DNA of 64,000 bases from Acidobacteriota bacterium (lineage in GTDB: Bacteria > Acidobacteriota > Terriglobia > Acidiferrales > UBA7541). Of this stretch, positions 3,951-21,676 are shown piece by piece. Under the pieces are notes generated by a model. It saw only the letters and a list, made by a program, of their open reading frames with translations, did not search any database and was not told the DNA's origin. Made by a program: the position numbers and the translations under genes. The stretch lies in contig QHYM01000103.1 in assembly GCA_003223295.1 (NCBI GenBank), positions 6,581-70,580 on the forward strand. The letters are read 5' to 3'. The stretch's first letter is position 1. Every line of letters begins with the position of its first letter.

Positions 3951-4043
3951 TCCGTTTAGCATAACCGGTTTGTACTTCCACTGCGCCAGTGATCCTTCGG
4001 GTTCGACTTTGTCGAACCCTCAGGATGACAGCGCTTGTTTGCG

Positions 4044-5243
4044 TTAAATCACCGGGAGGGCGGTTTTGCGCGGGGGATTGAAGAAGGGAAGCGGGACGAC
4101 TTTCGCGGAGACGGTGTGGCGCACGGCTTCGACGGTCATTTCCATACTGAGAGATGTGCCCGGAGTGGAACTTTCGCGGCTCACCGAAGCGAGGGCGATC
4201 ATTTTTTTCAACGTGGGAGACCAGGTGGTTGAGGTAGCTTTGCCGACCTGGCGGCCACCGCGATAAACGGGCACGGCGACGCGCGAGGCCATGCCGGGGA
4301 CTTGCGGCGCCATTTTTAGCTTGTCGTATAGCGCTTCGACTTCGTTCCAATTGATTTCCAGGCCGACGAGAGCACGCTTGGCCCCTTTTTTCGCTTCCTG
4401 CGCCAGCGCTTCGCGGCCCACAAAATTTTCTTTTTCCAAATCGACCAGCTTGCCGAGGCCGATTTCGAAGGGCGAATATTTTTGCGAGTCAATGAGCGCT
4501 TTCTTGCTCGAGATGTAGTCCACTTCGATCAGGATTAGCCCTGCTTCGATGCGGGCGACGTCCAGAGCAATCATGCCCGCGGGATGGATGTCGAAGGCTT
4601 TGCCTTTGGCGACCAGCGCGTCCCACACTTTGACGGCGTCGATCCAGGGCATCCAGATCTCGAAGCCAAGATCGCCGGTGTAGCCGCTGCGGGAGATGTC
4701 CACGGGAACGCCGGCGATTTTTCCACGCGTAACGCGGAAATACTTCAGGTTATCGATCGGCGCATCGGTAACCATGCGCAAGAGCCGTCCCGACGTGGGT
4801 CCTTGCAGAGCAAGCGCGGCGGTTTGTTCGGAAATGTCCTCGATCCTCACGTCCAGGGCGAGCGCGTTTTGCTGGAACCAGCGCAAGCTGGGATCCGCGG
4901 CGGTCCAGCGGTATTCGTTTTCGCTGAGGCGCGTGATGGTGCCATCGTCGATGACTTTGCCCTCGGGATCGCACCAGCAGCAGTAGATGACCTGGTCGAC
5001 GGCGACTTTGTTGATGTCGCGGGAGATGACGCGGTTGACGAACTTGGTGGCGTCGCGGCCGGTCACGCGATATTTGAAGAGCGGGGAAATGTCGATGAGC
5101 GCGGCGGAATTGCGGATGGCGTTGTACTCGTGCTCATGATGCATCTCGTAGACGCTGACAGTGTAATAGCCGGACCACTCGCGATAGTTCAGGCTTTCGC
5201 ACAGCGCCAAGGTGCGCTCATGAAACGCGGTTCCAACCGGCAC
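4044..5243 (-). CDS. aminomethyltransferase family protein (GcvT-like folate-dependent)
   Basis: 399 aa. ALIDISPLFKYRVTGRDA ... ALQGP ... SRSGYTGDLGFEIW are hallmark GcvT/DMGO-type motifs. GTG start with GGAGGAG 3 nt upstream. Confidence 0.85.
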   Translation of the reverse strand: MPVGTAFHERTLALCESLNYREWSGYYTVSVYEMHHEHEYNAIRNSAALIDISPLFKYRVTGRDATKFVNRVISRDINKVAVDQVIYCCWCDPEGKVIDDGTITRLSENEYRWTAADPSLRWFQQNALALDVRIEDISEQTAALALQGPTSGRLLRMVTDAPIDNLKYFRVTRGKIAGVPVDISRSGYTGDLGFEIWMPWIDAVKVWDALVAKGKAFDIHPAGMIALDVARIEAGLILIEVDYISSKKALIDSQKYSPFEIGLGKLVDLEKENFVGREALAQEAKKGAKRALVGLEINWNEVEALYDKLKMAPQVPGMASRVAVPVYRGGRQVGKATSTTWSPTLKKMIALASVSRESSTPGTSLSMEMTVEAVRHTVSAKVVPLPFFNPPRKTALPVI

Positions 5244-5993: not shown

Positions 5994-7604
5994 ATGGGAC
6001 AGCACTACGACGCTATCGTCATCGGCGGCGGCCATAACGGGCTTGTCAACGCCGCGTATCTAGCCAAGGCAGGGAAGAAGGTTGTCGTTCTCGAGCGCCG
6101 GCACGTGCTGGGCGGCGCGGCGGTGACGGAGGAGATCTTTCCCGGGTTCCTGTTTTCGGAGTGCTCCTACGTGGTCTCGCTGCTGCGGCCGGAGATTATC
6201 CGGGAGCTTGAACTACCGCGCCACGGGCTCGAAATCCTGCCGCTGGACGGCACGTTCACGCCCATGCCGAGCGGTGATTACCTGTGGCGCGTGAACGATC
6301 ACGCCAAAACGATCCGGGAGATTCGCCGGCACTCGCGCGTGGACGCCGAAGCGTATGAAGAATTTTCGAAGATGATGGTGCCGATGTGCCGGTTCGTGAA
6401 GCCCATCCTGTCGATGATTCCACCCGATCCCACGACGCTAAACCCGCGCGATCTCAAGCAACTCCATTTTCTGCTGCAACGCTTCCGCGAACTTTCTTCC
6501 GACGAGCGATACACGCTGGTGCAGCTCATGACCATGAGCGCGGCGGATTTCCTCGACCAGTGGTTCGAAACCGATGCCCTGAAAGCCACGATGTCGGCCT
6601 CAGGAATCATTGGGACGTTTCTGGGGATTCGCTCGCCGGGAACGGCATACGTTTTGCTGCATCACTACATGGGCGAGATTGACGGTGCGTTTCGCTCCTG
6701 GGGCTTCAGCCGCGGGGGCACGGGCGCCATTTCCAACGCCATCGCTTCAGCCGCGCGCGAACTCGGCGCGGAGATTCGCACGAAAGCGCCCGTCACGAAA
6801 ATCCTAACGAAGAACGGGCGGACCTGCGGTGTGGTGCTGCAGTCCGGAGAAGAAATCTCAGGGGACGTCGTTTCGTCGAGCGTCGATCCTCATCTGACGT
6901 TTGAGAAATTTCTCGAGCCCAACGAACTACCTTCGGATTTTCTCGAAAGCGTGCGGCGCTACAAATTCCGCGGCTCTTCCGGCAAGGTCAATCTCGCCCT
7001 CGACGCGCTTCCGAATTTCAAGTGCCTGCCGGGTCATGGCGCGCATCTTCGCGGCGCGATTTCCATCTCTCCCGGCATGGACTACATGGAGCGCGCCTAC
7101 GATGACGCCAAATACGGCCATTACTCGCGCCGCCCGTATATCGACATGGTGATACCAAGCCTGACGGATCCAAGCGTGGCCCCTCCCGGGAAACACGTTC
7201 TTTCGTGTTTCGTGCAATACGCGCCGTACAGATTGGCCGAGGGCAACTGGGACGAGCAGCGCGAGGCCTTCGGCAACAACGTGATCGACACGATTGCCGA
7301 ATATGCGCCGAATATCAAGGACATCATCATCGGCAAGCAGGTGCTCACACCGCTCGACCTGGAACTCGAATTCGGCCTCACGCAGGGAAATATTTTTCAA
7401 GGCGAGCTTTCCCTTGAACAGCTCTTCTTCCTGCGGCCCGTTGCCGGGTGGGCCTATTACCGTACGCCGATTCACAACCTCTATATGTGCGGGTCGGCCA
7501 CGCACCCGGGAGGCGGCATTATGGGCGCCAACGGCCGCCTGGCGAGTCAGGTCATCCTGAAAAACTGGAAGTTTGGCGCATCTCGTTCGAAGGCGGCCAA
7601 CTGA
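5994..7604 (+). CDS. FAD-dependent oxidoreductase, phytoene desaturase (CrtI)-related family
   Basis: 536 aa with the N-terminal Rossmann motif YDAIVIGGGHNGLVNAAYLAKAGKKVVVLERRHVLGG, COG1233-like throughout. Confidence 0.85.
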   Translation: MGQHYDAIVIGGGHNGLVNAAYLAKAGKKVVVLERRHVLGGAAVTEEIFPGFLFSECSYVVSLLRPEIIRELELPRHGLEILPLDGTFTPMPSGDYLWRVNDHAKTIREIRRHSRVDAEAYEEFSKMMVPMCRFVKPILSMIPPDPTTLNPRDLKQLHFLLQRFRELSSDERYTLVQLMTMSAADFLDQWFETDALKATMSASGIIGTFLGIRSPGTAYVLLHHYMGEIDGAFRSWGFSRGGTGAISNAIASAARELGAEIRTKAPVTKILTKNGRTCGVVLQSGEEISGDVVSSSVDPHLTFEKFLEPNELPSDFLESVRRYKFRGSSGKVNLALDALPNFKCLPGHGAHLRGAISISPGMDYMERAYDDAKYGHYSRRPYIDMVIPSLTDPSVAPPGKHVLSCFVQYAPYRLAEGNWDEQREAFGNNVIDTIAEYAPNIKDIIIGKQVLTPLDLELEFGLTQGNIFQGELSLEQLFFLRPVAGWAYYRTPIHNLYMCGSATHPGGGIMGANGRLASQVILKNWKFGASRSKAAN

Positions 7605-16116: not shown

Positions 16117-16146
16117 TTGTGAGGGAGTTTGCAAGCGCAGTACAAT
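16117..16146 (+). promoter_or_regulatory. sigma70-like promoter candidate for pruA
   Basis: TTGTGA (16117-16122), 18-nt spacer, TACAAT (16141-16146). It is followed by GAGGAGG (16163-16169) and GTG at 16178. Confidence 0.45.
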
Positions 16147-16177
16147 GGTTTGCTTGCCGATTGAGGAGGGATTTGCC

Positions 16178-17752
16178 GTGGCCACTGCCGAACAGAAACT
16201 GCACATGACAGAGTTCACCAACGAACCGTTTATTGATTTCTCTAAACCGGAAAACCGCCAGCGCATGGAAGAAGCGCTGAAGAAGGTGAAATCCGAATTT
16301 GGCCGCGAATATCCGGTGTGGCTGGGCGGGCAAAAAGTGAGCACACCGGACAAGCGCAACTCGACAAATCCATCGCGGCCTTCGGAGGTGATTGGCGTCT
16401 TCCAGAACGCCACTGCCGACATGGCCAAGCAGGCGGTGGATGCAGCCCACAAGTATTTTGATACCTGGAAAAAGGTGCCGCCGCAGGAGCGCGTGAAGTG
16501 CATTTTCCGCGCCGCGCAGATCGTGCGCGAACGAAAATTTGAATTGAACGCGCTGGTTTGCTACGAAGTCGGGAAAACGTGGGTGGAAGCGGATGCGGAC
16601 ATCGCGGAAACGATTGATTTTTGCGAATTTTACGGGCGCGAGATGCTGCGGCTGGCTGAGCCACAGAAACTCACCCCTATGCGCGGCGAGCGCAACTACC
16701 TTGTGTACATTCCTCTAGGTGTCGGGGTGGTGGTTCCGCCGTGGAATTTTCCCTGCGCGATCATGGCTGGCCTTGTCGCTGCATCACTGGTGACCGGAAA
16801 CACCGTGGTCCTGAAGCCAGCGAGCGATTCGCCTACAATCGCCGCAAAGTTCATTGACATAGTTTACGAGGCAGGCATACCAAAGGAAGCGGTGAATTTC
16901 ATTACCGGGCCGGGCGGAGCCGTTGGCGACACTTTGGTGACTCATCCGAAGACGCGCTACGTTGGATTTACGGGTTCGAAGGAAGTTGGACTGCGCATCA
17001 GCGAATTGGCCGCAAAACCCTCACCGGGACAAATCTGGATTAAGCGCACCGTGTTGGAGATGGGCGGCAAGGATGCGATTGTCGTGGATGAGGAAGCGGA
17101 TATTGACGCGGCCGTAGAAGGAACGGCGCAGGCAGCGTTTGGCTATCAAGGCCAAAAGTGCTCAGCGTGCTCCCGGGCGATCGTGACGGAGAAAGTTTAT
17201 GACACCTTCCTGCAGAAACTTGTAGATCGGACCAAAAAGATCACCGTGGGACCGAGCGATGATCCCGGCAATTACATGGGGCCGGTGATCAATCAGTCGG
17301 CGCTGAAGACGATTTTAGATTACATCGAAGTAGGCAAGAAGGAAGGGCGCTTGCTCACGGGCGGAAAGCGCGCGGCAGGCGATGGCTATTTCATCGAGCC
17401 AACGATTATTGCGGACGTGCCTCCAAAAGCGCGGCTGGCCCAGGAAGAAGTTTTTGGTCCGGTGCTGGCGGTGATCAAGGCGAAGAATTATGACCAGGCG
17501 CTGGAAATCGCCAACGATACGGAGTTTGGCTTGACCGGCGCGGTGTATTCGAAGAATCCGGAGAAGATTCGGAAAGCCGAAGAAATGTTCCACGTCGGGA
17601 ATCTGTATTTAAACCGCAAGTGCACCGGCGCGATGGTTGGCGCGCATCCCTTTGGCGGCTTCAACATGTCTGGAACGGATTCCAAGACGGGCGGAAAAGA
17701 TTATCTTCTGCTGTTCCTGCAGGCCAAGTCCGTCGCGGAAAAAGTCAACTGA
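16178..17752 (+). CDS. pruA: L-glutamate gamma-semialdehyde (1-pyrroline-5-carboxylate) dehydrogenase
   Basis: TEFTNEPFIDFSKPENR N-terminus, an ALDH core with EMGGKDAIVVD and a catalytic-Cys region QGQKCSACSR. GTG at 16178 sits 8 nt after a strong SD. The ORF-track ATG at 16145 lies inside the putative -10 box. Confidence 0.9.
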   Translation: MATAEQKLHMTEFTNEPFIDFSKPENRQRMEEALKKVKSEFGREYPVWLGGQKVSTPDKRNSTNPSRPSEVIGVFQNATADMAKQAVDAAHKYFDTWKKVPPQERVKCIFRAAQIVRERKFELNALVCYEVGKTWVEADADIAETIDFCEFYGREMLRLAEPQKLTPMRGERNYLVYIPLGVGVVVPPWNFPCAIMAGLVAASLVTGNTVVLKPASDSPTIAAKFIDIVYEAGIPKEAVNFITGPGGAVGDTLVTHPKTRYVGFTGSKEVGLRISELAAKPSPGQIWIKRTVLEMGGKDAIVVDEEADIDAAVEGTAQAAFGYQGQKCSACSRAIVTEKVYDTFLQKLVDRTKKITVGPSDDPGNYMGPVINQSALKTILDYIEVGKKEGRLLTGGKRAAGDGYFIEPTIIADVPPKARLAQEEVFGPVLAVIKAKNYDQALEIANDTEFGLTGAVYSKNPEKIRKAEEMFHVGNLYLNRKCTGAMVGAHPFGGFNMSGTDSKTGGKDYLLLFLQAKSVAEKVN

Positions 17753-17755
17753 CCA

Positions 17756-17763
17756 AACAAGCC
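17756..17763. repeat. target-site duplication, left copy (AACAAGCC)
   Basis: Identical 8-mer immediately outside both terminal IRs. Confidence 0.8.
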
Positions 17764-17779
17764 GGTAGTGGTACAGTTT
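17764..17779. repeat. terminal inverted repeat, left (GGTAGTGGTACAGTTT)
   Basis: Exact reverse complement of 20259-20274. The tip GGTAGTG fits the IS1-family GGnnnTG end pattern. Confidence 0.85.
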
Positions 17780-17828
17780 GAGTTTCGATCCCATTGAAGT
17801 GATCCGCCGACCGTGCAATCATTGGTTC

Positions 17829-17972
17829 ATGGCAAAGAGCAAAACCGAAGATATAAACGAAGCAGCATTCCGCGTGGTCAGAGAGTCCACTTTAGAGCCT
17901 TCGAGCATGCCAAAGAAAAAGCCTACTAGGAGCCGCAAGAGAAAGGCCAAACGAATTACGAAATCAAGGTAA
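17829..17972 (+). CDS. small basic protein (47 aa), unknown function, transposon cargo
   Basis: MAKSKTEDINEAAFRVVRESTLEPSSMPKKKPTRSRKRKAKRITKSR with a Lys/Arg-rich tail. Its 3' end overlaps the Fic 3' end by 17 nt (convergent). Coding status is unproven. Confidence 0.3.
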   Translation: MAKSKTEDINEAAFRVVRESTLEPSSMPKKKPTRSRKRKAKRITKSR

Positions 17973-19101
17973 CGCCTTTTTGGAAGGGATCAGGTATACC
18001 TTTCGGTTCTGATCCGTGTATCTTCACAGCTATTGCCCTAATTTCCTCAGAAGCTCTATAAATTCGTCCTCTCCGTTCTCCTGTTGGTACGAGCAGACCT
18101 GATTCTACAGCCGCTCGTAAATCTCGACTTGCAACAACTTTGCTTACTTCAGCAAAATGCCTGTAGGTGGCGCTGCGAACGCGAAATCCCATCGCCGCAT
18201 CAGCAACAGCCCCTATTACGCGGTCCGGCAAATTTTTCCTTGCTACTTCTCTTTCCAATTCATCCCACAATTTCTTGATGATCACTGAACGTCTCAGGAC
18301 AGTACCAGCTTGGCGATAATGAGCGGTGAGGTTGAATCGAATCCACGGACGAGTATCGCGTTGCGGATTCCACTTGCCACGCCCAACCTCAGCTAGAATG
18401 TCGTAATAGTCTTGAGTGTTTTTCCCCAAATATTCCTCGATTGAACAGAATGTGGGGTCAACAATTCCTTTGATTGCTAAAACGAGAGTCTGCAAACATC
18501 GAGCCATTCTGCCATTCCCATCGGAGAACGGATGGATCATCGTTAAATTGAGATGCGCCATAGCCGCTTTGACGAGAGTGTGTTCACTATCTCGTGGGCC
18601 GTTAAGGTACTCGACGAGTTCCGCTACGAGTTTCGCAACAATATCGGCGGGTGGGCCTTCGTAAACATTCTCTCCCTTCGATTCATCTCGGACATAGATC
18701 GGCCCTGGCCGCCAGTTCCCTGGATGTTTTGTAAGATCGTAGCTCAGCATCATGAAGTGGAGGCTTCTAAGGAAACCATCATTGAAAGCGAAGCTAGAGT
18801 CTTTGGAGAGTTGCAGAACGTAGGTCATAGCATTGCGATAGCCTGTTACTGCATGCCACGTCTCTTCCCCTGCCTCAAGTGGTTCGTCTCCTTCGGCGGC
18901 TGCTATAGCATCCTCGGCGGTTACCAGATAACCTTCAATGCTATTTGATCCCCGAATCGCGCGAGCAAAGGCGTTTCGCCGCAAAACACCCTCCCATCGC
19001 GAGGGTGTAGACAAGCTGTATTTAAGCGACTTATGCATCTTCGCAATGGCGGCAATGACTTCTAATTCTTCTTTTCTAAGCTCCACGCTCTTAAAGATCA
19101 T
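17956..19101 (-). CDS. Fic family protein (class II, N-terminal inhibitory helix; C-terminal wHTH-like region)
   Basis: 381 aa. Canonical Fic motif HPFSDGNGRMAR (nt 18499-18534) and inhibitory motif SNSIEG, which fits [ST]xxxE[GN] (nt 18931-18948). Confidence 0.9.
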   Translation of the reverse strand: MIFKSVELRKEELEVIAAIAKMHKSLKYSLSTPSRWEGVLRRNAFARAIRGSNSIEGYLVTAEDAIAAAEGDEPLEAGEETWHAVTGYRNAMTYVLQLSKDSSFAFNDGFLRSLHFMMLSYDLTKHPGNWRPGPIYVRDESKGENVYEGPPADIVAKLVAELVEYLNGPRDSEHTLVKAAMAHLNLTMIHPFSDGNGRMARCLQTLVLAIKGIVDPTFCSIEEYLGKNTQDYYDILAEVGRGKWNPQRDTRPWIRFNLTAHYRQAGTVLRRSVIIKKLWDELEREVARKNLPDRVIGAVADAAMGFRVRSATYRHFAEVSKVVASRDLRAAVESGLLVPTGERRGRIYRASEEIRAIAVKIHGSEPKGIPDPFQKGVTLIS

Positions 19102-19136
19102 GTTCCTTATCCTATAATCAGTGAACTTCCGTATAA

Positions 19137-19165
19137 ATAATAATTGACTTTTAGTCCCATGTCAA
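19137..19165 (-). promoter_or_regulatory. sigma70-like promoter candidate for fic
   Basis: On the minus strand: TTGACA (19165-19160), 17-nt spacer, TATTAT (19142-19137), about 35 nt upstream of the Fic ATG. Confidence 0.5.
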
Positions 19166-19171
19166 TATACT
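19144..19171 (+). promoter_or_regulatory. sigma70-like promoter candidate for the transposase
   Basis: TTGACT (19144-19149), 16-nt spacer, TATACT (19166-19171), then the GAGAGGAA SD and ATG at 19196. Confidence 0.5.
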
Positions 19172-19195
19172 ATTTTCACTGAGAGGAATAGACCA

Positions 19196-20047
19196 ATGAA
19201 CCGACTAAGAAGGGCAAAGCAGGCGCAAATCATCTCAGCCCTGGTTGAGGGAAATTCTCTACGCGCCACTTCGCGCATGACTGGCGTTTCAAAGGTGACG
19301 ATTCTTCGACTGCTGAAATCGCTCGGGGCAGCCTGCGCCGCGTATCAGGATAAGGTCCTACGAAACCTCACGTGTAAGCGGATTCAGTGCGATGAGATTT
19401 GGCAATTCTGCTATGCCAAAGACAAGAACGTGCCCGCCGATAAACAAGGGCAGTTTGGCTATGGGAATGTGTGGACCGGGGTTGCGCTCGATGCGGAAAC
19501 GAAATTGATTCCTAGCTGGCGCGTTGGGACACGCGGGGCGGCCACCGCCTATGAGTTCATGCACGATTTGGCTGGGCGTCTGGCGAATCGCGTACAACTG
19601 ACCACAGACGGCCATCGCGTGTATCTAGACGCGGTAGAAAGTGCATTCGGCTCAGAGATTGATTACGCGATGCTGGTCAAGCTGTATGGCGGAGATCGTG
19701 AGGAAAGCGAAGCTCGCTATAGTCCGGCAGAGTGCATCGGATGCCGTACGATCCCCATTTCTGGCAACCCGAAAGCAAAGCATATTTCTACTAGCTATGT
19801 TGAGCGCCAGAATCTCACAATGCGGATGTCTATGCGCCGATTCACGCGGCTCACCAATGCATTCTCAAAGAAAGTGGAGAATCACGAGCACGCGCTGGCC
19901 CTTCACTATATGCATTACAACTTCTGCCGGATTCACCAAACACTGCGCGTCAAACCAGCGATGGAAGCGGGAATTGCCGACCACGTTTGGAACATAGAAG
20001 AATTGGTGGGACTATTGGACAGAATGCAGACTGAGGCAGCGGCATGA
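19196..20047 (+). CDS. IS1 family DDE transposase (single-ORF type, N-terminal HTH)
   Basis: 283 aa. CDEIWQFCYAK ... WTGVALDAETKLIPSW ... LTTDGHRVY ... YVERQNLTMRMSMRRFTRLTNAFSKKVENHEHALALHYMHYNFCRIH is the conserved IS1-type C-terminal pattern (ERxNLTxR...R.T..FSK...H). Confidence 0.8.
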   Translation: MNRLRRAKQAQIISALVEGNSLRATSRMTGVSKVTILRLLKSLGAACAAYQDKVLRNLTCKRIQCDEIWQFCYAKDKNVPADKQGQFGYGNVWTGVALDAETKLIPSWRVGTRGAATAYEFMHDLAGRLANRVQLTTDGHRVYLDAVESAFGSEIDYAMLVKLYGGDREESEARYSPAECIGCRTIPISGNPKAKHISTSYVERQNLTMRMSMRRFTRLTNAFSKKVENHEHALALHYMHYNFCRIHQTLRVKPAMEAGIADHVWNIEELVGLLDRMQTEAAA

Positions 20048-20259
20048 TCTCGCAAGTACAAATGTACGCCCTACTAGGTGTTGTATGGGTTGGTGGCTGG
20101 GGATTCATGTTCTTCGCCTATCCTGAACTAGTGTGTCGAATTTTCAGAGTAAAAAATCCCACGCCCAAGAGGCTCAAACTCATCAAAATAACGGGAGCCG
20201 TCGAGTTGGTCTTGGTTTTCAGTGCGTCTATTGGATACGCAATTTTCGGTTTCCATTGA
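20044..20259 (+). CDS. small two-TM membrane protein (71 aa), transposon cargo
   Basis: An ATGA start/stop overlap with the transposase suggests translational coupling. There are two hydrophobic helices, and the stop codon abuts the right IR. Confidence 0.4.
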   Translation: MISQVQMYALLGVVWVGGWGFMFFAYPELVCRIFRVKNPTPKRLKLIKITGAVELVLVFSASIGYAIFGFH

Positions 20260-20274
20260 AACTGTACCACTACC
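20259..20274. repeat. terminal inverted repeat, right (AAACTGTACCACTACC)
   Basis: Exact reverse complement of 17764-17779. Confidence 0.85.
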
Positions 20275-20282
20275 AACAAGCC
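20275..20282. repeat. target-site duplication, right copy (AACAAGCC)
   Basis: Identical to 17756-17763. Confidence 0.8.
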
Positions 20283-20284
20283 AA

Positions 20285-21676
20285 TTAGGTCGCCTTGTCA
20301 TCCGCCTTGCGCGAAACACGCTTCAGCACGCGAAACACGGGATAACTCAGGACAAGCATTCCCAGGGCCAGCGGAGCATTCTTCTGGTCGGTGACAATCG
20401 AACCAATCAGGAACAAAACCGAGGCCGCCAGCGCAACTCCGGTGAGCCAAGGGTAACCCAGCGCTCGATACGGGCGTGGCATCTCCGGCTCTCGCTTTCG
20501 CAGGACGAAGACCGACGCGTAGGAAAGCGTGTAATTTGCCACGAAGAAAAACGAGAGCATGGCCGTGATACGCTGGAAGGCGTCTCGGCCCATGAAGGAA
20601 ATCACAAGGAAGAGCACACCGACGAGCGTGCTGAGAAAAAGTGAGACCGTCGGTGTTCCGCCTTTGTTTACCGTCGTCGCGCTGCGAAAGAAGAGCCCGT
20701 CGCAACTCATGGCATACACTGTCCGTGTACAGAAGAGTTGATTGGCGTTGAGACAGCTCAGCATGGAAATCACCATGATCGAGCGGATGATTGGGTCCCC
20801 AAGACTTCCGAACACCCGATCGGCAACGGTTCCAAGGACAAAAGTATTCCCGGCGATTTCATTCATGGGCACGATGTACAGCGCGATCAGATTCAGCAGC
20901 AGATAAATGCCCATGATGGAGAACACGCTGCCGAAAATGGCACGCGGAATATCGCGGCCGGGATCGCGCACCTCTTCGCCGAAATAGATGACGCCATCCC
21001 AGCCGTCCACCGTGTAGATGACGGCCTGAAGTCCCAGCATGACTGCGATGGCCAGAGGCCAGCCCGACGGCAAGGGAAGTGCGGCGGCGGACTGCACGGC
21101 AGCTTTGTGAGCTGCTCCTCCCCAGAGAAAAGCTGCGCCGACGAGAATCACGAATGCGCCGGTCTTGAGCGCGGCAGTCAAGAGTTGCGCGCCACTTCCC
21201 CAGCGAATGCCGCGCCACTGCAGGACCCCAAACCCGACAATGATCCCCACGGAAAGACTTTGCACGCGGCCCACGAAGATGGGGAACAAGTGGCCGCTAT
21301 ATTCGCTGATGACGATGGCGACAGCGGCCGCGGTGCCGCAGGTGGAGAGCCAGTCACTCCAGCCAACGATGAAGCCGGCGTAATCGCCGAGCGCGCGCCG
21401 CGAAAAATTATACTGGCCGCCGCTACGCGGAATCGCAGCGCCAAGTTCGGCCATGGAAGATGCGCCGCAGAGCGCGTAGAGCCCGCCAAGAATCCAGATG
21501 CTTAGAAACAACCACGCGTTGGGCAATTGCTTCGCAACATCGCCAGGCGTGTAGACGATGCCTGCAGCAATCGTATTTCCGATGGCTACCGACATACCAA
21601 ACCACATGCCGAGAACTTTCAAGAGCCGGCCGCGGCTGTAAGGCTGAGTGGAAGACGCCAACGAGCTGGTCGTCAA
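20285..21676 (-). CDS. APC superfamily amino acid permease
   Basis: 463 aa with about 12 TM segments and an N-terminal region LKVLGMWFGMSVAIGNTIAAGI typical of APC transporters. TTG start at 21676, uncertain. Confidence 0.85.
   Translation of the reverse strand: MTTSSLASSTQPYSRGRLLKVLGMWFGMSVAIGNTIAAGIVYTPGDVAKQLPNAWLFLSIWILGGLYALCGASSMAELGAAIPRSGGQYNFSRRALGDYAGFIVGWSDWLSTCGTAAAVAIVISEYSGHLFPIFVGRVQSLSVGIIVGFGVLQWRGIRWGSGAQLLTAALKTGAFVILVGAAFLWGGAAHKAAVQSAAALPLPSGWPLAIAVMLGLQAVIYTVDGWDGVIYFGEEVRDPGRDIPRAIFGSVFSIMGIYLLLNLIALYIVPMNEIAGNTFVLGTVADRVFGSLGDPIIRSIMVISMLSCLNANQLFCTRTVYAMSCDGLFFRSATTVNKGGTPTVSLFLSTLVGVLFLVISFMGRDAFQRITAMLSFFFVANYTLSYASVFVLRKREPEMPRPYRALGYPWLTGVALAASVLFLIGSIVTDQKNAPLALGMLVLSYPVFRVLKRVSRKADDKAT

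Follow-up and report, generated by a model that had tools for sequence, protein, structure and literature searches.

Gene content and boundaries of the element

The 64,000-nucleotide stretch analysed here (the window) covers positions 6,581 to 70,580 of contig QHYM01000103.1 from an Acidobacteriota bacterium (assembly GCA_003223295.1). Between two convergent host genes, pruA and an amino-acid permease gene, it carries an element of 2,511 bp (17764-20274) which encloses a gene for a Fic protein. The element is very probably an intact, autonomous transporter insertion sequence (IS) of a large IS1-related clade with Fic as its cargo, and for its structural reading we have hardly any doubt.

The left terminal inverted repeat, GGTAGTGGTACAGTTT, occupies 17764-17779 (+ strand), and the right one at 20259-20274 (– strand), which reads AAACTGTACCACTACC on the + strand, is its perfect reverse complement (16/16). 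The pair matches in 18/20 positions if extended to 17783. A search allowing up to three mismatches found no further match to GGTAGTGGTACAGTTT in the window, and the two copies compare with 0.05 expected by chance. The 8-bp direct repeat AACAAGCC stands directly outside both ends (17756-17763 and 20275-20282; 8/8), and the target-site duplication is exactly 8 bp because the bases beyond the two copies differ. Both tips read GGTAGTG, which fits the GGnnnTG ends of the IS1 family. The G+C content is 49.4% in the element and 58.4% in the remaining window. The first-pass annotation, made from the sequence, had described an intact IS1-family transposon with a Fic gene between two convergent stop codons, with these repeats, this duplication, this size and a lower G+C content than the flanks; all of this was upheld on re-reading. 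A compound transposon was ruled out, since the repeats enclose one unit with only one gene for a transposase. A chance repeat beside a chromosomal Fic gene was also ruled out, since independent Fic-carrying copies have the same ends.

From left to right, the element encodes a basic open reading frame (ORF) of 47 amino acids (aa; 17829-17972, + strand), the Fic protein of 381 aa (17956-19101, – strand), a single-ORF transposase of 283 aa with a helix-turn-helix (HTH) and a DDE catalytic domain (19196-20047, + strand), and an ORF of 71 aa (20044-20259, + strand). A 94-bp spacer separates Fic from the transposase. The 71-aa ORF had been described as a membrane ORF translationally coupled to the transposase, and this description holds: its ATG overlaps the transposase stop codon (ATGA), and a Kyte-Doolittle hydropathy scan gives two hydrophobic segments. 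Base 20259, the last of its stop codon (20257-20259), is also the outermost inner base of the right repeat, and the ORF has no match in Pfam, NCBIfam or PHROG. Among related loci fetched from genome and metagenome contig collections (labelled L001 and so on), it is conserved only in L176 (96%) and L003-6 (83%). It is absent from the Fic-carrying loci L088 and L089, in which other genes stand in its place. The 71-aa ORF is an accessory gene common to the closest relatives only, and the region 3' of the transposase is a second variable slot because this ORF is swapped for other genes there.

Transposase and family assignment

The ends GGnnnTG and duplications of 8-9 bp are hallmarks of the IS1 family (PMC10425158 Table 8; PMC6807381). 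Such ends are common to IS6/IS26 and IS1 (PMC6807381), and together with an 8-bp duplication they do not discriminate between the two families, so the protein evidence decides. The transposase matches the Pfam domain DDE_Tnp_IS1 (PF03400) with 28.1 bits against a cut-off of 24.1. Among the NCBIfam IS models, IS1 is the best with 59.9 bits, followed by IS6 (22.5 bits) and IS1595 (21.5 bits). By comparing the transposase by BLASTP with the InsAB' frameshift product, rebuilt from IS1A of E. coli K-12, an identity of 25% over 236 aa was obtained (E=4e-8). The alignment covers the HTH and the catalytic-type residues D66 (QCDEIW/MDEQW), D137 (TTDGH/MTDGW) and E203 (YVERQNL/RIERHNL), and in the transposase the second D and the E are ~40 residues further apart. 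Furthermore, close homologues carry the annotation 'IS1 family transposase' from both the NCBI and the JGI pipelines. The IS1 right end, GGTAATGACTCCAACTT, is similar to clade ends such as GGTAGTGACTCAGTTT, and the inner part of the terminal repeat in the window resembles it. The original proposal of an IS1-like single-ORF DDE transposase, of a family compatible with the ends, is supported by these results.

Membership of the element in IS6/IS26, or in a separate family, is improbable. Such a placement would account for the GGnnnTG ends (PMC6807381) and 8-bp duplications, which IS6/IS26 elements also have, for the weak match to the IS6 model (E=7e-5) and an IS1 model score below its cut-off, and for a protein that has the extra residues between the second D and E and neither the InsA zinc finger nor the frameshift. 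On the other hand, the IS1 model exceeds the IS6 model by 59.9 to 22.5 bits, the Pfam IS1 domain is above threshold, the InsAB' alignment spans the HTH and all three catalytic residues, and both annotation pipelines name the IS1 family. Membership of IS6 itself was ruled out on the weak model scores, since 22.5 bits is far from the IS6 cut-off of 125.

The classical IS1 layout (740-1180 bp, InsB fused to InsA through a –1 frameshift, a zinc finger in InsA) differs from that of the element, with its 2,511 bp against 768 bp for IS1 and its single 283-aa ORF. The layout is compatible only with non-classical IS1 subgroups. ISfinder lists the IS1 subgroups 'single ORF' and 'ISMhu11', the latter with members up to ~4.6 kb and passenger genes. 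The element is also unlike IS1 in its different small left-end protein and its passenger genes. Its sub-cut-off NCBIfam score points to a divergent branch and not to a close IS1 relative, and we regard the transposase as a divergent, single-ORF branch of the IS1 family.

Fic protein and the Fic-transposase spacer

The Fic protein matches the Pfam domain Fic (E=3e-15), and its catalytic motif, HPFSDGNGRMAR at residue 190, is intact and fits HxFx(D/E)GNGRxxR. An inhibitory-helix motif, SNSIEG (residues 52-57), which agrees with (S/T)xxxE(G/N), lies N-terminal to the Fic core. Class II Fic proteins carry an intramolecular N-terminal inhibitory helix, and the class definition reportedly comes from Engel et al. 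2012. Because the inhibitory motif is N-terminal in the same chain, the protein in the window is class II. A class I FicT/FicA pair, made up of Fic and a small ORF, was ruled out since the inhibitory motif is inside Fic and the 47-aa ORF is without (S/T)xxxE(G/N). The PADLOC model SoFic (PDLC03963) matches nearly end to end (E=1.3e-49 over residues 18-355), and relatives in the PDB are 4rgl (6e-20) and SoFic 3eqx/3zcn (~6e-14).

SoFic is a stand-alone Fic-domain protein with anti-phage activity (10.1101/2022.05.11.491447) and has been described as a toxic AMPylase which acts by abortive infection (PMC12249575). The Fic in the window is like the SoFic defence proteins (Millman et al. 2022; PMC12249575) in its full-length PADLOC match, catalytic motif, N-terminal inhibitory motif, similar length and C-terminal domain. 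It is unlike them in being distantly related (E ~6e-14 to SoFic in the PDB) and transposon-borne. A role as defence or addiction effector has, in our estimate, about an even chance of being correct.

In the spacer between Fic and the transposase, overlapping divergent promoter-like sites were recognised by consensus matching (19137-19171). On the minus strand, TTGACA-17-TATTAT (11/12 consensus, 19165 to 19137) points towards Fic, and on the plus strand TTGACT-16-TATACT (10/12 consensus, 19144 to 19171) points towards the transposase, for which it is the only promoter-like site. The captured Fic module may therefore be the supplier of the transposase promoter.

The Fic gene in the window could be an addiction module of the element instead of an anti-phage gene: as a toxin-like, self-inhibited AMPylase, its product would penalise cells in which the element is lost or silenced. 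The classical toxin-antitoxin-type pairs of many clade members (RES-Xre, HTH-Zn-peptidase, YhaV) would agree with such a role, as would the precedent of toxin-antitoxin pairs within Tn3-family transposons (PMC7157771) and the one spacer which Fic and the transposase share with its overlapping divergent sites. However, Fic carries the inhibitory motif in its own chain (class II), without an evident labile antitoxin partner, and segregation does not remove an element from a chromosome in the way that it removes a plasmid. In the relic loci L090-95, moreover, Fic remains intact under purifying selection despite a destroyed transposase. We consider the addiction module unlikely.

Related elements and their cargo

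Close homologues of the transposase were traced to their own contigs and the ends were delimited there. A scan of one genome per GTDB species gave 515 transposase relatives, and the relatives make up at least 8,000 protein clusters. The 80 loci fetched contained ~70 delimitable elements, with lengths of 1,817-4,144 bp and the end consensus GGTAGTGnnnnnnTTTGA (GGTAGTG…TTTGA). Perfect 8-bp duplications, without a target consensus, flank 65 non-redundant elements (including L088, L089 and L178). The identical 16-mer of the window bounds the elements in L001, L003-6, L024, L041, L051, L063, L069 and L082. For instance, the element of L001 (2,332 bp, duplication AAAAATTC) stands at another site than that of L003-6 (2,157 bp, duplication GGATTATT) and has different internal genes. 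These ~70 elements, together with the Fic copies of L088 and L089 and their own duplications, bear out the boundaries first drawn for the window.

The hosts are mostly Acidobacteriota (Terriglobia, 'Acidiferrales'), and further members come from Verrucomicrobiota, Nitrospirota, Myxococcota, Chloroflexota and Patescibacteria. The clade also occurs on plasmids of cultured Alphaproteobacteria. Plasmid p_1 of Mesorhizobium loti (CP050295) carries a 3,370-bp element with repeats of 20/20 and the duplication CGCTGGTG. In Acidiphilium multivorum plasmid NZ_CP041717 (L179), a RES toxin and an MbcA/ParS/Xre antitoxin directly follow the IS1-family transposase (4001-4891).

No bare IS was found among the delimited elements, all of which have at least 567 bp upstream of the transposase. 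Variable cargo lies between a small left-end gene and the transposase, usually on the opposite strand, and the second variable slot follows the transposase. Cargo-carrying IS1 relatives had been thought uncommon, a view that these data contradict: in this clade, with its 515 GTDB relatives and at least 8,000 protein clusters, cargo is the rule.

A Pfam scan of 121 internal ORFs of at least 110 aa, from which family totals only were taken, gave HTH_3 (12), P63C (6), Peptidase_M78 (5), NYN (4) and SDH-type protease (4) as cargo. Single cases included YhaV toxin, DNA methyltransferase, STAND NTPase, Rap1a and others, and HTH and Zn-peptidase genes also occur as pairs. PADLOC recognised RmrA of RosmerTA (E=1.6e-79, to E=4e-84), PD-Lambda-2_B-like proteins (E=7e-47 and E=1e-46), HEC-09 and capP/capH-like regulators. 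The majority of the cargo ORFs are singletons without a known function, and a part of them is probably spurious.

Small left-end gene and the 47-aa ORF

The core and the cargo were defined by all-against-all comparison of the ORFs inside the elements. A small + strand ORF, which starts in or just after the left repeat, is present in ~42 of the ~68 non-redundant delimited elements, the window included. The long form of its product has ~80-100 aa and the motif DxNQLAxxIV…KNPAAVALGRLGGLKGGxARAxKLSxxxRxxIAxKAAxARW. The gene has a clear coding signature: the differences per codon position are 0.43/0.36/0.67, and its frame is free of stops, of which the other frames have 4-5 per 100 codons. The protein has at least 8,000 homologues, all of them unnamed or labelled 'histone H1' and without a Pfam domain, and the long form matches only a PHROG of unknown function. 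AlphaFold2 predicts four helices for the long form (mean pLDDT 74, pTM 0.32), and a Foldseek search of this model against the PDB gave no meaningful match. The conserved small protein may be an accessory factor of transposition.

The 47-aa ORF in the window starts with ATG at 17829; a start at TTG 17778, which lies in the same frame within the left repeat, would give 64 aa. Over the last 17 nt the ORF overlaps with the 3' end of Fic, which is on the opposite strand. It contains 16 K+R in 47 residues and has no Pfam, NCBIfam or PHROG match. It aligns with the clade-wide small ORF only in the N-terminal part, at about residues 8-22 (DINEAAFRVVREST), and a basic tail follows. The copy in L088 has the same short form, with 67% identity over all 46 aligned residues and a ratio of nonsynonymous to synonymous substitution rates (dN/dS) of ~0.23. 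The 47-aa ORF is accordingly a shortened derivative of the conserved left-end core gene. Both small ORFs first reported are present, and the 71-aa one is accessory; the listing of the 47-aa one as cargo is not retained.

A 47-aa antitoxin is encoded downstream of EcSofic (PMC12249575), and the ORF in the window has the same length, lies at the 3' end of Fic and is conserved in the Fic lineage (67% to L088, dN/dS ~0.23). It could in principle be a Fic-specific antitoxin like that 47-aa AS1 of E. coli, so that the cargo would be a two-gene toxin-antitoxin module. However, it is convergent with Fic instead of co-directional, elements with unrelated cargo have a left-end ORF homologous to its N-terminal part, and stand-alone chromosomal Fic homologues are without it. 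This makes the antitoxin the least credible of the alternatives considered here, and a derivative of the core gene remains the preferred reading.

In addition, P63C-domain cargo proteins (L024:321-1346, L027:4887-5891) begin with …GG…ARA..LSPEER…AA..RW, which is the C-terminal motif of the small core protein, and they clustered with that protein because of the common motif. This motif resembles a portable module without a known function.

Fic-carrying copies, selection and mobility

By comparing the window with L003, which has the same transposase lineage and other cargo, homology was found only at element positions 1-115 and 1433-2511. Because the homology stops there, the cargo module comprises positions 116-1432 (window 17879-19195), with the end of the small ORF, Fic and the spacer between Fic and the transposase. 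The upstream spacer is present to about element position 1421 in stand-alone chromosomal Fic homologues too, and it is therefore part of the Fic module.

Soil metagenomes commonly contain Fic homologues at 88-98% identity, and all four of the loci examined among the closer homologues (73-98% identical) are elements or former elements. L088 is 3,055 bp long, with duplication CGCCAGCT and 78% nucleotide identity over element positions 1-2261, and L089, with 3,001 bp and duplication GGAAATTC, carries Fic at another site. The copy in L176 (124-2565), beside rplU/rpmA, is 97-98% identical to the window element and is decaying. It has no duplication (CTAGAGCG vs CGTCTTAA), its transposase gene has lost 72 bp in frame, the small ORF is frameshifted and one repeat contains a mismatch. 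In the window, L088, L089 and L176, Fic thus lies inside the repeats at different sites, as is expected for a passenger gene of a transporter IS.

The loci L090-95 hold a fixed relic in which the repeat is without its terminal 6 bp and only 124 aa of the transposase remain, with Fic intact (L090: 5001-6146). At least 15 contigs from several samples show it in a single genomic context, with a SurA-like gene upstream and DUF4143 downstream. This looks like domestication of the Fic cargo. Purifying selection on Fic is strong: its dN/dS is 0.062 between the window and L088 and 0.075 between the window and the transposase-less relic, and that of the transposase is similar (0.065-0.10). Synonymous divergence of Fic and the transposase between copies is 0.85-2, near saturation. 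Because dN/dS is low and synonymous divergence so high, the link of Fic with the transposon is old and has outlasted several transpositions, with selection acting on Fic for a function of its own. Furthermore, selection on Fic is independent of the mobility of the element because Fic stays intact in L090-95 with the transposase destroyed.

The first reading of the element as recent and probably still mobile is plausible, since the transposase is full length with D66/D137/E203 and copies 97-99% identical occur in other samples (L176, L087). From the sequences compared, continued mobility is somewhat favoured. L087, a 1,107-bp contig of GCA_009772155.1, is 99.1% identical to element positions 1254-2364, and both contig ends lie inside the element. 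This break pattern is that expected where an assembler meets a multi-copy or polymorphic repeat. The loci L004 and L005 were taken from sister assemblies whose accession numbers are neighbouring.

The element could instead be an immobile relic, intact by chance of age, with Fic effectively a resident host gene. The single copy in 64 kb, the decaying sister copies L176 and L090-95 and the old Fic-transposase linkage (synonymous divergence 0.85-2) would fit such a history. They must be set against the repeat (16/16) and duplication (8/8), a full-length transposase with D, D and E conserved, copies 97-99% identical in other samples and genomic contexts, and a G+C content still 9 points below that of the host. 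On balance, a relic is not likely, and an intact transporter IS is preferred.

A stand-alone Fic homologue, 65% identical, lies between gyrB and gyrA in several megabase-scale contigs (L182-L184, Fic 4001-5146). Some Fic toxins are said to AMPylate GyrB and ParE (Harms et al. 2015), so the position between the gyrase genes is curious given these targets.

Insertion site

The flanking genes are both intact: pruA, for L-glutamate gamma-semialdehyde dehydrogenase (16145-17752, + strand; TIGR01237, 731.8 bits vs a cut-off of 659.65), and the APC-family amino-acid permease gene assigned by family search (20285-21676, – strand). The pruA stop codon (17750-17752) lies 3 nt before the left AACAAGCC and the permease stop codon (20285-20287) 2 nt after the right one. 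With the element and one repeat copy removed, the spacer between the two genes is 13 bp, and not ~20 bp as first estimated. The 8-bp duplication was made in this spacer, and neither gene is disrupted.

The empty site was reconstructed as …GACCAAACAAGCCAATTAGG…, and related genomes and metagenomes had been proposed as the place to look for it. The gene order without the element was found there, and the exact site was not. In at least 16 metagenome contigs, pruA and the same permease gene converge directly across a short spacer without the element, and the pruA proteins encoded there are mostly 84-94% identical to that of the window. In the closest, L096 (94% aa, 81% nt), a single …GCAAGCC|TAGG stands at the equivalent point, and the element-free relatives, as anticipated, lack two copies of AACAAGCC. 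The empty-site support is that of a conserved gene order and not of an identical allele. Because pruA and the permease gene abut in these relatives, the element landed in a tiny neutral spacer.

Proposed mechanism and significance

The core of the clade consists of 16-20-bp terminal repeats, a gene for a small, basic, presumably alpha-helical protein at the left and the single-ORF HTH-DDE transposase. In the window element, the first slot contains the gene for a class II Fic AMPylase of the SoFic type along with the region upstream of it, in which the only promoter-like site for the transposase lies. Uptake of this module probably swapped the C-terminal half of the small core protein for a basic tail, and the second slot contains the 71-aa membrane ORF, coupled translationally to the transposase. 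The DDE transposase probably acted on the GG…TG ends in the manner of IS1, by cutting and joining them. Fic may be a self-inhibited, toxin-type effector that works as an addiction module or as one for anti-phage abortive infection. Selection on the host or on the element would maintain it, and transposition would not need it.

Several findings weigh against the reading of the element as an intact transporter IS with a defence-type cargo. The window holds a single copy. The transposase does not reach the NCBIfam IS1 equivalog cut-off of 100 (59.9 bits, with residues 7-148 aligned only), and its N-terminus begins at the HTH, without the InsA zinc finger or programmed frameshift. Fic is not an orthologue of the studied SoFic proteins because its score of 62.5 bits is far below the NCBIfam SoFic equivalog cut-off of 550. 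SoFic models of the PADLOC/DefenseFinder style pick up many Fic proteins of unknown role. At 65-71% identity, the homologues of Fic are ordinary chromosomal genes that stand alone, with neither repeats nor a transposase nor the small ORF. The spacer promoter calls are consensus matches only, and the tally that suggests a toxin- and defence-type cargo was made within the elements only. The exact 23-nt empty site, TGACCAAACAAGCCAATTAGGTC, has no match in the genome or metagenome contig collections. Finally, some members of the window lineage are decaying, as the damaged copy in L176 shows.

A transporter IS is an IS derivative with passenger genes, as PMC3129680 and PMC9330008 cite the concept of Siguier et al. 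2009. The element agrees with it in having IS-type ends and a transposase which enclose genes unrelated to transposition. The clade differs in that cargo is near-universal and not occasional, sits in a defined slot between two core genes, and is mainly of toxin, antitoxin and defence type instead of resistance or metabolic genes. Like the toxin-antitoxin pairs of the Tn3 family (PMC7157771) and the defence cargo of Tn7-like elements (PMC8649781), the clade comprises transposons with toxin or defence modules, and as in Tn3 the module adjoins the transposition genes and may share their regulation. Unlike these, which have other transposase families and are much larger, clade members are IS of 2-4 kb with one or two cargo genes, and in the window element the upstream region of the cargo appears to supply the transposase promoter.

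Transporter IS, IS1, SoFic and defence cargo on transposons are each already known. The two-gene core, the defined cargo slot and the toxin- and defence-rich load appear to be undescribed: no paper describing the clade was found in the searched literature, with ISfinder and TnPedia outside that search. We put forward tentatively, with somewhat less than even confidence, that the element is a member of an undescribed multi-phylum clade of IS1-related mini-transposons, with a two-gene core of a novel small basic accessory protein and the HTH-DDE transposase, a cargo slot for one- or two-gene anti-phage and toxin modules (SoFic, RosmerTA-like, PD-Lambda-2-like, RES-Xre), many unknown cargo genes and a module-supplied transposase promoter, by which expression of the transposase would be tied to the regulation of the cargo.

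Even alone, the element is a clean and well-bounded case of an IS moving a Fic AMPylase gene between genomes. The clade as a whole comprises thousands of 2-4-kb transposons of soil bacteria, in which one pair of ends and one transposase are combined each time with a different toxin, defence or unknown module. It suggests that IS-sized elements have a part in the spread of such genes, besides islands, prophages and large transposons. Since the repeats and duplications set exact boundaries, the cargo is a well-delimited set for mining new defence genes. If the clade is indeed an undescribed shuttle of defence genes, its slots would be a new guilt-by-association resource for the defence genes of soil bacteria.

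Tandem and short elements

Two further loci show clade members side by side. In L068 (4341-11998), three copies of a 2,547-8-bp member stand in tandem, the second and third being 99.96% identical, with the same 8 bp, GAAGCTAC, at each junction and at both flanks. This array could be the product of tandem amplification via the duplicated target, of repeated insertion at the same 8 bp, or of a long-read assembly artefact. In L062 (4458-7590), a transposase-less element of 697 bp, bounded by GGTAGTGGTACAGTTT…AAACTTTACCACTGCC, directly follows a full element, and its interior is unrelated to that of its neighbour. The same 8 bp, GATTTTCG, stand at all three junctions, and the short element looks like a non-autonomous (MITE/MIC-like) relative which used the same target.

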